Shown here: in pieces, positions 16,180 to 21,481 of the stretch | Layout of the letters: every line of letters begins with the position of its first letter | Position numbering within the stretch: position 1 is the stretch's first letter | Assembly: GCA_029565375.1 (NCBI GenBank) | Contig: JAKQOF010000047.1 | Span: forward strand, 1-31,795 | DNA length: 31,795 nt | Source of the DNA: a bacterium | Lineage (GTDB): Bacteria; Patescibacteriota; Saccharimonadia; Saccharimonadales; Saccharimonadaceae | Direction: 5' to 3' | Notes under the pieces: model-generated | What the model saw: only the letters and a program-made list of their open reading frames with translations | Databases searched by the model: none | Told to the model about the DNA's origin: nothing | Position numbers and translations under genes: made by a program

Positions 16180-17376
16180 ATGACAAAGCATCGTACTAAC
16201 GAATTGGGCGCCGTATCATTATTCATTGTCGTGTTTACGGCACTTCTTATTACTGTTGTGACAGTCAGTTTTATTCGTTTGACCATACGAGATGAACAAC
16301 AAGCAACAACTGTCGATTTGTCACAAAGCGCCTATGACTCGGCCCAAGCAGGTGTTGAAGACGCAAAGCGAGCAATTATCCGCTACCAAACAGTCTGCGC
16401 AACAGGCGATAGTGCCGCGTGTCTGGCTGCGAGGACAAAGATTAATCTAGACGAATGTAACACTGGGCTGAGTGATATCGTGACTCCTGTTGATGGTGAG
16501 GTCAAGATTCAACAGAGTAGTGGAGACACCGTGTTAGATCAAGCGTACAGCTGTGTAAAAGTGAAGTTAGATACGGATGACTACCTGGGTGTGTTGTCGA
16601 CAAATGCGTCAAAGGTTATTCCTCTCGTGAGTACAAAACCATTTAACACCGTGTTGCTTGAGTGGTATAGCTCGGAGAATCTTCAGACGACAAATAGTTT
16701 TGACGTCGACTTGCAGCCAGGAGCGTTGCTCGCGCAGCCATTGCTCGCTCAAAACCTTTGGAAGCCAAATCGACCCTCTGTTATGCGTGCACAGCTGATG
16801 CAATATAGCAGCAGTGGCTTTACGCTAGGTAGTTTTGACAGTGTCAATGCAACCGGCCAAAGTAATGCGAACACTTTGTTCCTATATCCGACTGGGACGA
16901 CAGGGACAACGTCATCAGTTGTAGACGAGGCATCGTTTGTGGGACGAGATAATCGCGCGACGCCCACAGGCACGCGCGCAACGACAACCAACCCGTTCCC
17001 AGTGACTTGCTCGGGCAACCTTACAGGTGGTGGATATGCCTGTCGTGTAGAGTTGACCTTGCCTGATCCTGTTGGGGCGGGGAGTCGACTTGCATATTTG
17101 AAGTTGAGTGCACTTTATAACAAATCAAATTATCGTCTGACACTATCAAACAATGGTGTTGATCCAGCGAGCTTTAACGGTGTGCAGCCTCAGGTAGATT
17201 CGACAGGTCGCGCAAATGATTTGTTCAGGCGTGTACAGAGTAGGGTTGAGCTTACAGACCTTGTTGATTCAAGCTTTCCGTATCCAGATAGCGCCGTTGA
17301 TGTGACCGGTAACCTTTGTAAAGACTTCTTAATTACTGATACGGCAAGTGACTATAACAACACGTGCGCGCCTTAA
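16180..17376 (+). CDS. PilX/GspK-like large minor pilin
   Basis: ELG^AVSLFIVVFTALLI (no Glu5), SQSAYDSAQAGVEDAKR (PilX N-terminal signature). SD-like AGAGGA before ATG 16180. Confidence 0.8.
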   Translation: MTKHRTNELGAVSLFIVVFTALLITVVTVSFIRLTIRDEQQATTVDLSQSAYDSAQAGVEDAKRAIIRYQTVCATGDSAACLAARTKINLDECNTGLSDIVTPVDGEVKIQQSSGDTVLDQAYSCVKVKLDTDDYLGVLSTNASKVIPLVSTKPFNTVLLEWYSSENLQTTNSFDVDLQPGALLAQPLLAQNLWKPNRPSVMRAQLMQYSSSGFTLGSFDSVNATGQSNANTLFLYPTGTTGTTSSVVDEASFVGRDNRATPTGTRATTTNPFPVTCSGNLTGGGYACRVELTLPDPVGAGSRLAYLKLSALYNKSNYRLTLSNNGVDPASFNGVQPQVDSTGRANDLFRRVQSRVELTDLVDSSFPYPDSAVDVTGNLCKDFLITDTASDYNNTCAP

Positions 17377-18314
17377 CTATTTGACGTGACATCCTCTGGG
17401 CTATCGGCCTCGCTATGAAACTTTTCGTATATTTCACGGAGATGTTGGTCGGTCACATGGGTATATATCTGAGTTGTACTAATGTTACTGTGACCAAGCA
17501 TACTTTGAACACTGCGTATATCAGCGCCATTCATCAGTAGGTCGGTTGCAAAGCTATGACGCATGGTGTGCGGGCTCACGTGTTTTGTGATGCCTGCCAG
17601 GCGCGCATATCGCGTCACGATTCGCTGAACACTTCTTGCAGTCAGCCGACGAAAGTCACCCGTCGTGCCGGTTGTATTATTACGACTATAGTTGAGGAAT
17701 AAGGGAGGGAGGTTGTCGAGTCGTTCTTGTAGGTATTCGTCAACGCAGCGTGCAGCGCTTTCACTAATAAAAATAGGACGATCCTTTTGGCCTTTACCGC
17801 GAACCATAAATTCACGTCGTTTTGTGTTGATGTGATCTCGGTTCAGGTTGACCAGTTCAGACACACGCAACCCGCTTGAAAACAGGAGCTCAACTAGTGC
17901 CTTGTCTCTTCGACCAACTTCGGTCGCAGTACTAATTTGTTCAAGCAACCGTTCAATCTCGTCAAAATGGAGAAAGGTGACCTGTTTACGCGTTGTCTTT
18001 GGAAGCTCAATCTTGTCTGGCGAAAGTGAGGGGATATCCCGTTTTGAAAGGTATCCGAGAAAACCACGAAGAGCAATAAGGTGATAGGACTGAGTGATGG
18101 TTGCTAATTCATCATCGTTGCCGTTTTTATAACGATTCAACCATAGTCGATATTTACGAATAACTTCCGATGTAATTTTATCTACAATTATATCTTCAGT
18201 AAACTCAACAAATCGTTCAAGATAGAGTTTGTAGTTTTCGGCAGTGCGCGCCGAGCGTCCACCTTCTACTTCAAGGTGTTCGATGTAGTCAAGGATGAGT
18301 TCCGACATGTACAT
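17373..18314 (-). CDS. xerC: XerC/XerD-family tyrosine recombinase
   Basis: Catalytic residues SSGLRVSEL, VRGKGQKDR, HTMRHSFAT, LGHSNI, TQIYTH. Start set at 18314 (MYMSEL); the longer ORF-track start runs into uppP. XerC versus XerD cannot be decided by eye. Confidence 0.88.
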   Translation of the reverse strand: MYMSELILDYIEHLEVEGGRSARTAENYKLYLERFVEFTEDIIVDKITSEVIRKYRLWLNRYKNGNDDELATITQSYHLIALRGFLGYLSKRDIPSLSPDKIELPKTTRKQVTFLHFDEIERLLEQISTATEVGRRDKALVELLFSSGLRVSELVNLNRDHINTKRREFMVRGKGQKDRPIFISESAARCVDEYLQERLDNLPPLFLNYSRNNTTGTTGDFRRLTARSVQRIVTRYARLAGITKHVSPHTMRHSFATDLLMNGADIRSVQSMLGHSNISTTQIYTHVTDQHLREIYEKFHSEADSPEDVTSNS

Positions 18315-18359
18315 GTTATTAGCATAGCCTAAAAGCCGATAACTCGGTACAATGAAACA

Positions 18360-19148
18360 ATGCATACGCTTGAAATCATCATCCTTGGCATCATTCAGGG
18401 TCTTACAGAGTTTATTCCTATCAGCAGTTCTGGGCACTTGGTTATTGCCCAAACCTTTTTTTCAGGCGCGTCTGACCATCTGTTTTTAGAGTTTATTAAT
18501 GTGGGTACACTTCTTGCATTGCTTGTTTTCTTCCGTAAAAAAATTCTGACGATTATCAAGGACATTTTTGTTCATAAAAAATATAAGCTTGCTGTCAATA
18601 TCTTAATCACTGCCATACCTGCTGGCATCATCGGCTATGTTCTGGCTGACTTTATCAGTGCAACTCCGTTTTTTGGCAGTGTATTTGTGGTGATGGTGAC
18701 GCTGGCAACAGTTGGTATTGTCATGGTTATTCTGGAACGATTGCCGAAAGCGTCAGCTGTCGGTAGCGGTGAGGCCCTCAGTCCGCTACGAGCTCTTGTT
18801 ATTGGACTAGCGCAGGTCTTTGCGTTGATTCCTGGCGTATCACGATCTGGATCAACGATTATCGCAGGAAGGCTGGCTGGCTTAAACCCTGCAGCCGCGG
18901 CTGAGTATAGTTTTTTGGCGTCTTTGCCGATCATGGTCGGCGTAACACTCAAGATACTTGTATCGGATCGAGACTACCTCATGGCAAATATGACCCCACT
19001 CATTATTGGTAATATTGCCGCATTTCTTGCCGGTATCTTTGCGATAGGCTTTTTAATGAAGTATCTGTCAAAGCATAGCTTGGCGCTATTTGGTTGGTAC
19101 CGGATTGGGCTTGCAGCTGTATTAGCGCTGGTTCTTTTGTTACAATAG
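18360..19148 (+). CDS. uppP: Undecaprenyl-diphosphate phosphatase (BacA/UppP)
   Basis: LGIIQGLTEFIPISSSGHL, ALIPGVSRSGSTI, AAEYSFL, FGWYRI. Confidence 0.96.
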   Translation: MHTLEIIILGIIQGLTEFIPISSSGHLVIAQTFFSGASDHLFLEFINVGTLLALLVFFRKKILTIIKDIFVHKKYKLAVNILITAIPAGIIGYVLADFISATPFFGSVFVVMVTLATVGIVMVILERLPKASAVGSGEALSPLRALVIGLAQVFALIPGVSRSGSTIIAGRLAGLNPAAAAEYSFLASLPIMVGVTLKILVSDRDYLMANMTPLIIGNIAAFLAGIFAIGFLMKYLSKHSLALFGWYRIGLAAVLALVLLLQ

Positions 19149-19173
19149 AGTGAATTGATTAAGGAGTACATTC

Positions 19174-19677
19174 ATGACAACTGTTGAAAACACACTAGTA
19201 TTATTTAAGCCAGACACGGTTCAACGCGGGCTTGTTGGCGAGATTTTGACACGATTTGAGCGCGTTGGTTTGAAGATTGTTGCAACAAAAATGATTGCAC
19301 CGAACAAAGACCATTACTACAAGCACTACGAAGAAATCGGCCAGATGATTACTCGTCGAGGCGAGAAAGCGTTTGACGTAACACTTGAGATGATGATACA
19401 AGGTCCAGTCATTGCCATGGTACTTGAAGGTGTCGAAGCGGTGGCCCTGGTACGAAAGCTCGTTGGCCCTACCGAACCAAAGTCTGCAGCACCCGGAACG
19501 ATTCGTGGCGACTTTTCGCATATGAGTTTTGTATACGCAGACGATCAGGGCAAAGGTATTCCAAACCTTATTCATGCCAGCGGTGACCCAGAAGAAGCAG
19601 CTAAAGAAATTGCGCATTGGTTTACTGATGACGAGCTGTACACCTACGAAGCAGCAAACGAAAAGTTTGTCCGCTAG
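19174..19677 (+). CDS. ndk: Nucleoside diphosphate kinase
   Basis: TLVLFKPD.VQRGLVGEIL.RFER.GLKIV, GTIRGDF, catalytic NLIHAS. SD AAGGAG. Confidence 0.96.
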   Translation: MTTVENTLVLFKPDTVQRGLVGEILTRFERVGLKIVATKMIAPNKDHYYKHYEEIGQMITRRGEKAFDVTLEMMIQGPVIAMVLEGVEAVALVRKLVGPTEPKSAAPGTIRGDFSHMSFVYADDQGKGIPNLIHASGDPEEAAKEIAHWFTDDELYTYEAANEKFVR

Positions 19678-19713
19678 TACCCCTGTTATATGCTACAATA
19701 ACGAGTGGGTAGG

Positions 19714-19842
19714 ATATGCCTCGGTAGCTCAACTGCCTGAGCGAAGCGAAACAATTAACAGAAAGCAGCTCTATCCAGTTGAATTATAAACAGAGGGTAG
19801 GCTGACGCGTTATAATACCTATATGCCTCGGTAGCTCAACTG
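19714..19842 (+). repeat. 22-bp direct repeat of the tRNA-Arg 5' end plus a 15-bp inverted copy of its D-arm
   Basis: ATATGCCTCGGTAGCTCAACTG at 19714-19735 and 19821-19842. GCTCTATCCAGTTGA (19768-19782) is the reverse complement of 19836-19850. Confidence 0.95.
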
Positions 19843-19901
19843 GATAGAGCAGATCCGTCCTAAGGATAAGGTTGTAGGTTCAACTCCTGCCCGGGGTACC
19901 A
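19825..19901 (+). tRNA. tRNA-Arg(CCT)
   Basis: Cloverleaf GCCTCGG/CCGGGGT, D-stem GCTC/GAGC, anticodon loop GT-CCT-AA, T-loop TTCAACT, encoded CCA. Confidence 0.95.
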
Positions 19902-19905
19902 AAAC

Positions 19906-20454
19906 ATGAGTAAACAAGATACATCTGACGAAGATTCACAAGCGCAGCTTGATTTTGATGGCCAGCGCGACGATGAACAACTATTGTTCATCTTTCGCCG
20001 ACACATCATTGCGATGCGCAAGGGCTTTTATTTGCTTGTTATCCCACTCGTTATTACGGCAATTCCACCGCTTATTTGGCAAAATAATCTTGAACTCTTT
20101 TGGCTTCCTGTCGGTGGCCTCGCATTAGGACTAATCCTCTTTCTGTATCACTTTATCTTGTGGTATTTTACGATCTATATCGTCACTGATCAGCGCATTC
20201 GGCAGGTGACCCAACGAGGTTTTTTTGGTAAGGATGTTATCGAGCTTCATCTGTCCAAGATTCAAAACATAAGCTATAATATACCAGGGTTTACAGGTGA
20301 AATTTTTCAATATGGGACAATCGTTATCCAGACATTTGTTGGTGACTTGGTGATTCATCAAGTCGAGCATCCCGACAAAACGTACAATAAATTACAAAAT
20401 GCTGTCAATAATGCAGTTAAACACCAAGGAGATTATGAAGAAGTTACTAGCTAA
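19906..20454 (+). CDS. Membrane protein with bacterial PH domain
   Basis: Two TM helices, then YIVTDQRI..V.QRGFF..DV.EL.L.KIQNISY..GT.VIQT, typical of bPH domains. Confidence 0.75.
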   Translation: MSKQDTSDEDSQAQLDFDGQRDDEQLLFIFRRHIIAMRKGFYLLVIPLVITAIPPLIWQNNLELFWLPVGGLALGLILFLYHFILWYFTIYIVTDQRIRQVTQRGFFGKDVIELHLSKIQNISYNIPGFTGEIFQYGTIVIQTFVGDLVIHQVEHPDKTYNKLQNAVNNAVKHQGDYEEVTS

Positions 20455-21481
20455 GTTACGTAGGAAAGACGTCGAGGCACCGTCGCGTATTACGAACGAG
20501 ACTGTCGCTGAACATCGTGAACGCATTCTTGCCGGTGGACGCCGCTTCAAGTATCCTTTGCAATACGTCCGACATCGCCTTGTGTTCAATACCATTATTA
20601 TTAGTGTTGTCGCAGTCATTGTTCTCGTGAGCGTCGGCTACTGGCAGTTATATTCTGTTCAAAACACCAACGTCTTTTTTTATAACGTGACGAAGGTTGT
20701 ACCGCTACCGGTCGGTTCTGTTGATGGACAGCCGGTCCTTTATAGTGACTATCTGATACGCTATCGCAGTGCAATCTATAACCTCGAACAAAAAGAGCAA
20801 GTCAGTTTGAAGACAGAGGATGGCAAACGCCAAGCAGACTATCATAAGCAAAAGGCCATGCAAGCTGCTATTAATGACGCGTATGGTGCAAAAGTTGCCA
20901 GCAAACTTGGCTTGAGTGTGACCGATGCTGAGCTGGAGTCATACATTAAAGCACAAAGACAGACGGCAGACGGTGAGATTTCACAGCAAACCTACGATGC
21001 GGCGACGCTTGATATTCTTGGATGGAGCCCAGATGAATATCGTCATGTGTTGAAGAATGAATTGCTCCGCCAGAAGGCGGCATACGCGGTTGATGACGCC
21101 GCACTGGCGACAAGCAATGCACTTACGTCACAAGTAAACGCTGATGGAAGTAACCTAGCGGCAATCACAACAGCGGCAAACGCAGTAGGCGCAAAGGTAG
21201 TGTATGGTGCATTTGGCTGGGTAAATAAAAGCAACCAAGACGGTGGGTTGGCTAGCGCAGCGGTTAAGCTCGAAAAAGGCAAAGTATCAAGCCCGATTAA
21301 GTCCACAACAGGAGACGGGTATTACTTTGTCCGCCTGATCGACAGCAACGACACACAGGTTAACTACGAATATATTCAAGTTCCACTGACAGAGTTTGCC
21401 AGGCAGTTGGCTGAACTACAGAAGAATAATAAGATTGCTGAATACATATCAGTACCAAAGACTGAAACAGATAATCCTTAA
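20435..21481 (+). CDS. SurA/PrsA-like membrane-anchored foldase
   Basis: One TM helix, SurA N-domain-like (GSVDGQPV.YSDY, VTDAELESYI), parvulin-like remnant (FGWV, LEKGKVSSPIKS..GYYFVRL). Start set at ATG 20435. Confidence 0.7.
   Translation: MKKLLAKLRRKDVEAPSRITNETVAEHRERILAGGRRFKYPLQYVRHRLVFNTIIISVVAVIVLVSVGYWQLYSVQNTNVFFYNVTKVVPLPVGSVDGQPVLYSDYLIRYRSAIYNLEQKEQVSLKTEDGKRQADYHKQKAMQAAINDAYGAKVASKLGLSVTDAELESYIKAQRQTADGEISQQTYDAATLDILGWSPDEYRHVLKNELLRQKAAYAVDDAALATSNALTSQVNADGSNLAAITTAANAVGAKVVYGAFGWVNKSNQDGGLASAAVKLEKGKVSSPIKSTTGDGYYFVRLIDSNDTQVNYEYIQVPLTEFARQLAELQKNNKIAEYISVPKTETDNP

Follow-up and report, generated by a model that had tools for sequence, protein, structure and literature searches.

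A cassette built from partial tRNA copies upstream of tRNA-Arg(CCT) in a Saccharibacteria genome, and similar copies before other tRNA genes

tRNA genes are classical integration sites, and rules for the sublocation of integrase attachment (att) sites within them are said to have been set out by Williams in 2002. In this work, we describe the sequence upstream of tRNA-Arg(CCT), at 19714-19824 on the + strand, in a stretch of 31,795 nt that we call the window (contig JAKQOF010000047.1, assembly GCA_029565375.1). The source genome belongs to the Saccharibacteria (Saccharimonadales; 710 kb in 125 contigs) and was compared with a genus set of 62 genomes. The upstream unit is a partial copy of the tRNA in which a short core replaces bases 19-22, standing head-to-head with an inverted partial copy. 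On balance, and with modest confidence, we read this unit as a member of a conserved, non-coding family of ~107-nt cassettes in Saccharimonadales, a DNA-level insertion/duplication that rewires the promoter of the tRNA. As with integrase att repeats, the duplicated tRNA segment keeps the gene intact, presence varies among relatives, and tRNA genes are preferred. In contrast to att repeats, the cassette duplicates the 5' end, contains an inverted copy of the target, and has neither integrase nor cargo between the repeats of its ~107-nt unit. To our knowledge, a junction in the D-loop corresponds to no known integrase sublocation.

Miniature elements of the REPIN/RAYT and Correia types are, like the cassette, short, non-coding, multi-copy and palindromic, and promoters can be part of them; the source genome also has RAYT-like HUH genes. 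Another likeness is the conserved internal sequence, since the core of the cassette is common to 5 copies in the source genome and 57 in the genus. Unlike these elements, the cassette has arms that correspond to its own target tRNA, are not borne by the element, and differ between tRNA species. Furthermore, it lacks a fixed short target duplication, occurs beside tRNA genes only, and shows no association with RAYT.

Archaea possess split and intron-containing tRNA genes, including genes with non-canonical introns in the D- or T-loop. In both those genes and the cassette, a structured segment interrupts a tRNA loop, and complementary parts are brought together, here in a predicted read-through RNA. 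The differences are that the cassette is bacterial, that no bulge-helix-bulge motif or splicing endonuclease was identified, and that an intact copy adjoins the interrupted one, which makes splicing unnecessary.

Inverted triplications joined at short inverted repeats are a described product of replication errors (PMC4689423). The cassette together with the gene forms a sense-antisense-sense arrangement that resembles such a triplication. As in tandem inversion duplication (TID) and origin-dependent inverted-repeat amplification (ODIRA), the copies follow the order direct, inverted, direct around a palindromic junction; here these are sense bases 1-26, antisense bases 26-12, and the full gene. 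The described rearrangements are large, have no foreign conserved core and are not stereotyped in site, whereas the inverted segment of the cassette is only ~15 nt and recurs at many tRNAs. Full-text literature searches returned no description of such cassettes. In Rfam searches, the region 19000-20500 matched the tRNA alone at E values up to 10, and across 10 related loci (E up to 0.1) nothing other than tRNA matched except mir-23, at 26 bits and thus below its gathering score of 52, which was taken as chance.

Parts of the cassette in the window and across its family

The preliminary description of this locus had claimed an exact direct repeat of 22 nt, a D-arm copy in antisense, and a segment following the break point. 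All three are present. The repeat (19714-19735 and 19821-19842) comprises 4 nt of leader and tRNA bases 1-18, and its upstream copy is referred to here as the decoy. The 15-nt antisense copy (19768-19782) is 100% complementary to the D-arm at 19836-19850. The segment CCTGAGCGAAGCGAA occupies 19736-19750, immediately 3' of decoy base G18, and the core that begins there stands in for tRNA bases 19-22 within the partial copy. A distance of 85 nt separates the two 22-nt repeats, with no open reading frame (ORF) inside. By our own arithmetic for 350 nt, the chance expectation is ~4e-9 for an exact 22-mer repeat and ~6e-5 for an exact 15-mer inverted repeat. The parts of the cassette and the adjoining gene are as follows:

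19678..19713, + strand: ancestral tRNA promoter region and leader, P1 (extended -10 TGCTACAAT at 19691-19699)
19714..19735, + strand: first copy of the direct repeat, 4 nt of leader plus the decoy (tRNA bases 1-18, 19718-19735)
19736..19763, + strand: family core, consisting of CC, the mini-hairpin GCGAAGC (19741-19747) and an A-rich linker (from the alignment)
19764..19767, + strand: short sense piece AGCA, tRNA bases 23-26, pairing with the first bases of the antisense arm as an inner palindrome
19768..19782, + strand: antisense arm, exact reverse complement of tRNA bases 12-26 (D-loop and 3' strand of the D-stem)
19783..19820, + strand: spacer, with a duplicated leader piece (19786-19801; direct repeat D2) and promoter P2 (promoter scan)
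19825..19901, + strand: intact tRNA-Arg(CCT) (ARAGORN; Rfam tRNA, 53 bits)

The predicted pairing of 7 bp between the 3' part of the antisense arm (CAGTTGA) and the decoy (TCAACTG) was recovered both by reading the sequence and by RNA folding. Both of the proposed -10 boxes also held. The extended -10 of P1 is ancestral and kept in relatives, and TATAAT at 19811-19816 was called as part of P2, together with TAAACA (19787-19792) across an 18-nt spacer, at 10/12 matches. The terminal inverted repeats proposed at 19678-19690 and 19785-19799 can be seen by eye; however, they need two 1-nt indels and were missed by the repeat search. Their interpretation as the ends of an element fails, because the left arm is the ancestral promoter region found in empty-site relatives and the right arm is duplicated leader, part of direct repeat D2 (19698-19713 against 19786-19801, 81%).

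Every tRNA of the source genome was screened for self-repeats, and the same architecture was observed before Arg-TCT, Arg-GCG, Lys-TTT and Lys-CTT. A covariance model was built from 10 copies (alignment A1, model R1); it matches the source genome exactly 5 times, before Arg-CCT and these four genes. Within the genus, the model found 57 copies in 33 of the 62 genomes, and outside it, 19 of 150 sampled genomes of the order, from many families, also carried copies. When searched with the letters of the window itself, the source genome gave no further copy of the full spacer 19678-19824, and the Arg-CCT-specific pattern CCTGRGCGAAGCG...CTCTATC found only the window in a 400-genome sample of the order. 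The covariance model was needed to reveal the family. The expectation of further copies beside other tRNAs was thus borne out for the short core only, the exact spacer being single.

All 44 copies with a called tRNA lie 5' of it. The tRNA species concerned are Arg-CCT, Arg-TCT, Arg-GCG and Arg-CCG; Lys-TTT and Lys-CTT; Met; Ala-CGC and Ala-GGC; Thr; Val-GAC and Val-TAC; and His. One more copy precedes Ala-TGC, giving 14 tRNA species overall. Tandem arrays were observed in G006 (contig C29, three units with a period of ~107 nt) and in G177 (two units). Identical cores were found at different tRNAs. The core CCAAGGCGGAGCCG is shared by Arg-GCG of the source genome and Arg-CCT of G194, and GGCGCAGCGTAGCTGC by Lys-CTT of G049 and Ala-TGC of G168. 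Furthermore, two copies at Met share GGCCCAGCCGAAGGCGG, from which the Ala-CGC core GGCCCAGCCGTAGGCGG departs by a single base. These identical cores measure 14-17 nt, and the arms fit the local tRNA each time, which argues that the core moved and that the arms were made from the target. Homology of the core across loci, beyond convergence, is likely from these comparisons.

The order of parts is the same in all 44 copies measured: bases 1 to 17-19 of the copy's own tRNA, CC, a GC hairpin, an A-rich linker, a sense piece, the antisense arm, a spacer, and the intact gene. In 41 of the 44, 16-18 of the 18 decoy bases equal those of the copy's own tRNA. The hairpin is fixed in position and varies in sequence and length (GC-GAA-GC; GCGCU-UUC-AGCGC; GGCGC-UU-GCGCC; GCC-GAA-GGC; CUGACAG-CUUGC-CUGUCAG). 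Its structure exceeds that of shuffled sequences (z = -0.92, p = 0.0015), and a compensatory change from GCGAAGC to ACGAAGT was observed in G076. Folded as DNA, the cassette alone was no better than shuffles (z = 0.14). The linker often contains ATAAT. The sense piece, tRNA bases 23-26/28, directly abuts the antisense arm in a near-zero-loop palindromic junction at tRNA bases 26-30, and across the family the inner stem between the two measures 2.5 bp, compared with 1.2 bp for shuffled sequences (p = 1.4e-5). Running back from base ~26-30 to 11-12, the antisense arm is the reverse complement of the tRNA that its copy precedes, with a median exact run of 14.5 nt, and it fits its own tRNA at 14 tRNA species. 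The spacer is mostly 37-50 nt (range 13-147 in the family). In the direct repeat, a tRNA part of 17-19 nt is joined by a leader part that ranges from 0 nt to 40 nt or more; leader parts of 40 nt or more are found in L196 and L171, which were taken as young copies, older ones retaining the tRNA part only.

Conservation was examined in the decoy/antisense helix and among orthologues. The helix is 84.9% paired, with 17 double-change cells. Such pairing is expected when both arms are copied from one tRNA, and alone it is therefore no evidence of selection. Among the Arg-TCT orthologues (n = 12), the decoy, CC, hairpin, TAGC and antisense arm are almost invariant, the linker varies more, and the spacer is free, which indicates that the cassette is not simply decaying. 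Judged from this pattern, either selection or concerted evolution would maintain it; unequal exchange between repeat copies would account for concerted evolution, for the arrays, and for precise losses. In G014, where the tRNA reads CAATTGG..GAGT, the antisense arm is ACTCTATCCAATT and thus follows its own divergent tRNA. Decay differs by lineage, with 6 of 18 decoy positions mismatched in G064 and a broken antisense arm in G022.

Gain and loss at tRNA-Arg(CCT)

tRNA-Arg(CCT) is flanked by ndk on the 5' side and by a gene for a bPH-domain membrane protein on the 3' side, and the order ndk, tRNA-Arg(CCT), bPH gene is kept through the 62-genome genus. An empty allele, as anticipated in the preliminary description, exists in most of these relatives, in which nothing but 40-60 nt of promoter and leader separates the ndk stop from the tRNA. 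In BLAST against G027, the window falls into two pieces that overlap by precisely the 22-nt repeat, marking an empty site in which the P1 leader of the window is fused to the intact tRNA. The promoter cccctgttatatgctacaat stands immediately before the intact tRNA in the empty-site relatives L006, L009, L011 and L041, and for this reason P1 is regarded as the ancestral promoter.

At the Arg-CCT site, the cassette is also present in G022, G014, G072, G064 and G076 and in the metagenomic genome L118; within the genus set it was found in 6 of 62 genomes. In a tree of the flanking proteins, these cassettes fall in one 12-member clade and in the G014/G072 pair. In the same tree, G064, which has the cassette, groups as sister to G027, which lacks it; this indicates turnover of the cassette over a short time. 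Judged by these alignments, the cassette was inserted into a site that is empty in most relatives. Exact loss through recombination between the two copies of the tRNA 5' end would leave the empty site seen in G027.

Readings of the cassette

The insertion/duplication reading that we favour can be put as a series of steps. The core would spread through DNA-level insertion at G18/G19 of the D-loop, and the insertion or its repair would copy the target in both directions, giving the sense-antisense-sense arrangement. The intact gene would remain, which is how an insertion could be tolerated in a single-copy essential gene. P1 would then transcribe the decoy and hairpin rather than the tRNA, and the tRNA, probably together with the bPH gene 4 nt behind it, would be expressed from P2. 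In any RNA read through from P1, pairing of the antisense arm with the real D-arm would be expected to cause misfolding. The earlier proposal of a miniature element that entered the D-loop and brought a new promoter was essentially right in kind and wrong as to the ends of the element and what it carried: the 5' half, which it was supposed to supply, and the antisense arm are instead copies of whichever tRNA is the target.

In the very small genomes of Saccharibacteria, the majority of tRNA genes exist in one copy only. One would not expect a recurring element to split the 5' end of these genes and still leave them functional. If it is true that the core moves and the arms are rebuilt from the target, a target-copying or target-guided chemistry without a described counterpart would be involved. 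Cassettes would take the place of the native tRNA promoter, and in the window would probably rewire the bPH gene as well. On a practical level, they yield pseudo-tRNA fragments that mislead annotation, and they fragment assemblies at tRNA genes. A dated series of gains and losses could provide strain markers for these uncultured bacteria.

Several observations weigh against this reading. No enzyme could be linked to the cassette, the candidates considered being a tyrosine recombinase and RAYT-like HUH genes. The source genome has one tyrosine recombinase (17373-18452), which is Xer-like and lies outside the repeats. Its three RAYT-like Y1 HUH genes (C82:285-509, - strand; C91:1667-1894, - strand; C98:3989-4225, + strand) lie in frames of 212-232 aa with the HuH motif NHFHLL; two of them are close paralogues, and 42 of the 62 genus genomes carry such genes. 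A RAYT/HUH mobiliser was rejected: cassette-bearing genomes with and without Y1_Tnp number 23 and 10, against 19 and 10 for cassette-free genomes (odds ratio 1.2, p = 0.79), and G014, which is 99% complete, has 3 cassettes and no Y1_Tnp gene. A search for reverse transcriptases gave a single match, below the cut-off, on contig C123. Neither a donor nor a free form of the core was seen. For the most part, cores group according to the tRNA beside which they stand, and orthologous copies are old. Vertical inheritance thus accounts for the majority of copies, and movement between tRNAs is deduced from a few shared cores. The near-invariance of the Arg-TCT copies points to selection or concerted evolution, which is not expected of a purely selfish scar. 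In addition, a fold-back origin of the inverted arm is something that we infer.

A bolder proposal, which we put forward tentatively and hold to be less probable than its negation, is an element that homes to tRNA genes. A hairpin core of ~30 nt would insert at the G18/G19 elbow, carrying or creating an arm complementary to the target, and would rescue the gene by itself; no element-encoded protein was found. In a variant of this proposal, the read-through RNA would be processed as a chimeric, intron-like pre-tRNA.

The preliminary description had also raised a cis-acting RNA switch; we consider an RNA device of this kind unlikely and found nothing in its positive support. In such a device, the antisense arm in RNA read through from P1 or ndk would sequester the D-arm of the nascent tRNA unless captured by the decoy; this would tune the tRNA and the bPH mRNA, and selection would keep the device in place. 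The geometry fits. The minimum-energy fold of the P1 read-through RNA (-62.9 kcal/mol, z = -3.3) is predicted to pair the antisense arm with the real D-arm. In the same fold, the decoy provides an acceptor 5' strand, paired with the 3' strand of the tRNA, as well as a D-arm-like hairpin, so that the read-through RNA would be no normal tRNA precursor. The device would also be consistent with the near-invariance of decoy, hairpin and antisense arm at Arg-TCT beside the more variable spacer and linker, and with the antisense arm that tracks the divergent tRNA of G014. The spacers of L118 and of Arg-GCG in the source genome, at 13-14 nt, leave no room for a second promoter, and the antisense arm must therefore sit in the pre-tRNA leader there. 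In addition, the linker is A-rich on the tRNA-sense strand both in the 5' cassettes and in one parsed mirror-image cassette on the 3' side (Ala-GGC, contig C12).

Against the device, the mismatches in the sense:antisense helix (11 G.T and 10 A.C) show no excess of G.T and thus no strand-specific G-U signature. These even counts fit a palindrome at the DNA level; as a strand test they are uninformative. Folding energy was lower for the minus strand in 28 of 34 copies, so that this strand folds equally well or better; the test is confounded by loop composition, and its result was discounted because the A-rich linker turns U-rich on the other strand. The promoter-like -10 of the window lies 3' of the antisense arm, and transcripts from it would therefore lack the arm; -10-like boxes were also seen by eye in the Arg-TCT spacers. 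Most close relatives dispense with the cassette at the same tRNA (present in 6 of 62), and the decay of the decoy in G064 and of the antisense arm in G022 is specific to lineages. No terminator-like U-tract follows the hairpin in the window. An intrinsic terminator formed by the decoy:antisense hairpin was also considered and rejected, as a U-tract is missing from the window and a T-rich stretch occurs in just part of the Arg-TCT copies.

Recurrent spontaneous rearrangement without any mobile element is, in our view, decidedly improbable. Fold-back or template-switch errors of the TID or ODIRA type would have to occur independently at many tRNAs, at the quasi-palindrome of the D-arm. The sense-antisense-sense geometry, the near-zero-loop junction at bases 26-30 and the naturally quasi-palindromic D-arm all speak for such errors. 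They leave unexplained, however, the foreign core of CC, hairpin and A-rich linker shared across tRNA species, genomes and families, as well as the fixed break at G18/G19 and the spacer of mostly 37-50 nt.

The chance that the structure is a decayed attL/attR scar, left by an integrase-driven island or prophage that entered the tRNA gene and was mostly deleted later, is very small, and this explanation is largely refuted. A tyrosine recombinase gene does lie 1.4 kb upstream, and 3'-fragment tRNA repeats occur at the Arg-CCT locus in L028, L029, L056 and L057. However, the duplication runs from the 5' end to the D-loop and does not involve the 3' end, an inverted target copy exists, all copies are ~100 nt and without cargo, the only recombinase of the genome looks like a housekeeping Xer type, and the identical stereotyped structure stands at 14 tRNA species.

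Three further candidates were tried and rejected. The likeness to a hammerhead ribozyme (CUGA...GAAAC) fails because CUGAGCGAAGCGAAAC lacks the core G8/A9, GAAAC is not kept in G014, and there is no Rfam match. An integron attC site (GCTCAAC / GTTGAAT; R'' RYYYAAC, R' GTTRRRY) fits the Arg-CCT copy alone, the Arg-TCT, Lys and other copies having CAGTTG/CAACTG, CAGCTG and the like. For an invertible promoter between the 15-nt inverted repeats, no inverted allele was found in any relative or contig, and the idea was set aside because inversion would destroy a single-copy tRNA gene.

Assembled reads from other sources cover the locus. A 346-nt Logan contig (run X1) spans 19679-20024, and with it the whole structure, with zero differences; X1 is possibly the sample from which the window was assembled. 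A contig of run X6, from an unrelated study, covers 19566-19759 and crosses the junction between decoy and core. The reads thus back the duplication, and the same architecture was independently assembled at the Arg-CCT site of 6 other genomes. That a collapsed or chimeric repeat produced the structure has next to no probability: the source genome is metagenome-assembled in 125 contigs and the contigs of some relatives (G084, G001, G006) end inside tRNA-Arg(CCT), but the X1 and X6 contigs, the orthologous cassettes in 6 other genomes at this site and the dozens of copies at other sites all argue against an artefact. The X6 contig starts within the 3' end of ndk, covers the decoy and ends inside the core; its library was guessed to be RNA, a type that is uncertain, and if it is truly RNA, ndk transcripts extend into the cassette.

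Flanking genes and other tRNA-flanking modules

The two protein-coding genes on either side of the tRNA locus are as follows:

19174..19677, + strand: ndk, nucleoside diphosphate kinase (ORF; Pfam NDK, 5.8e-41)
19906..20454, + strand: bPH-domain membrane protein gene (ORF; Pfam bPH_2, 1.5e-8; genus-wide synteny)

The promoter/terminator scan found no terminator-like site from the ndk stop to the cassette. The ATG of the bPH gene lies 4 nt past the encoded CCA of the tRNA, without a Shine-Dalgarno sequence and without a promoter of its own. This arrangement suggests a tRNA-mRNA co-transcript that would give a leaderless mRNA after tRNA processing, and expression of the bPH gene probably depends on the tRNA promoters. 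In the ancestral promoter (empty-site L006, L009, L041 and L042; window 19678-19713), a short inverted repeat, such as CCCTG..tgctacaat..CAGGG, holds the -10 in its loop, a structure that may combine the ndk terminator with the tRNA promoter.

Modules of ~88 nt with three hairpins were observed in the source genome and at tRNA-Arg(CCT) of relatives. They fold over ~85-90 nt and carry the motifs GAGAmCyGCC..., GATGGCAACTGG and GGTCrCGGAACGTGACC. Like the cassette, these modules occur in the same taxon, place a partial tRNA copy beside an intact gene, replace a few D- or T-loop bases, are distributed patchily, occur in tandem arrays, and have no Rfam entry. Unlike them, the cassette has a core of ~30 nt made up of one hairpin and an A-rich linker, none of these motifs, no likeness in sequence, and a partial copy that stands head-to-head with the inverted D-arm of the target. 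The short-core cassette with its inverted arm appears to be a separate member of a wider phenomenon of tRNA modules.

Cassettes on the 3' side of tRNA genes were also seen. In the source genome these lie on C23 (after tRNA-Gln CTG, 151-225), C83 (Gln TTG), C57 (Lys TTT) and C4 (Phe), and others occur in L026, L028, L029, L054, L056 and L058. Their layout consists of the tRNA and a terminator, a structured module of ~100-130 nt, and a copy of the 3' half from the T-loop through CCA, with a second terminator in several copies; in the Gln and Arg-CCT copies the module ends in ...CGTGAAGTTTCGGGGTCGCGGAACGTGACC. These 3'-side cassettes are the three-hairpin family of ~88 nt. A short cassette in mirror image stands 3' of tRNA-Ala(GGC) at 4008-4084 on C12, in which the T-arm region in antisense is followed by an A-rich linker, a GC hairpin and a copy of the tRNA 3' end in sense orientation. 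Partial versions with an antisense T-arm copy are found on C100 (Ser-GCT) and C72 (Pro-TGG), the GC hairpin and a degenerate sense copy being present at Ser-GCT only. In the Ala-GGC, Ser-GCT and Pro-TGG cases, the antisense arm adjoins the real tRNA, as it does in the 5' cassettes.

A different D-loop module is found 5' of tRNA-Arg(CCT) in L015 (G025), L030 (G030), L043 (G078), L047 (G081) and L056 (G073). It consists of tRNA bases 1-12, G..CCATGTCG-loop-GACGTGG, CAACTGG and the intact gene, and the alternation of GACGTGG with GACATGG exchanges U.G for U-A in the stem. G078 has no recognisable second -10, and the tRNA must therefore be read through the pseudo-copy there. In L017 (G036), a near-full-length pseudo-tRNA-Arg with a structured 86-nt insert in the T-loop and a truncated acceptor end lies ~150 nt before the intact gene. 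The contigs of G084, G001 and G006 break at tRNA bases 52-57, and these breaks probably share a cause with the G036-type insert. Finally, contig C29 of the source genome carries, before tRNA-Leu(CAG) (1710-1796), a partial copy altered in the D-loop by a different insert: a pseudo-copy of bases 1-13, CCTATGGTAAATC, and bases 20-30, with a duplicated leader of 26 nt.

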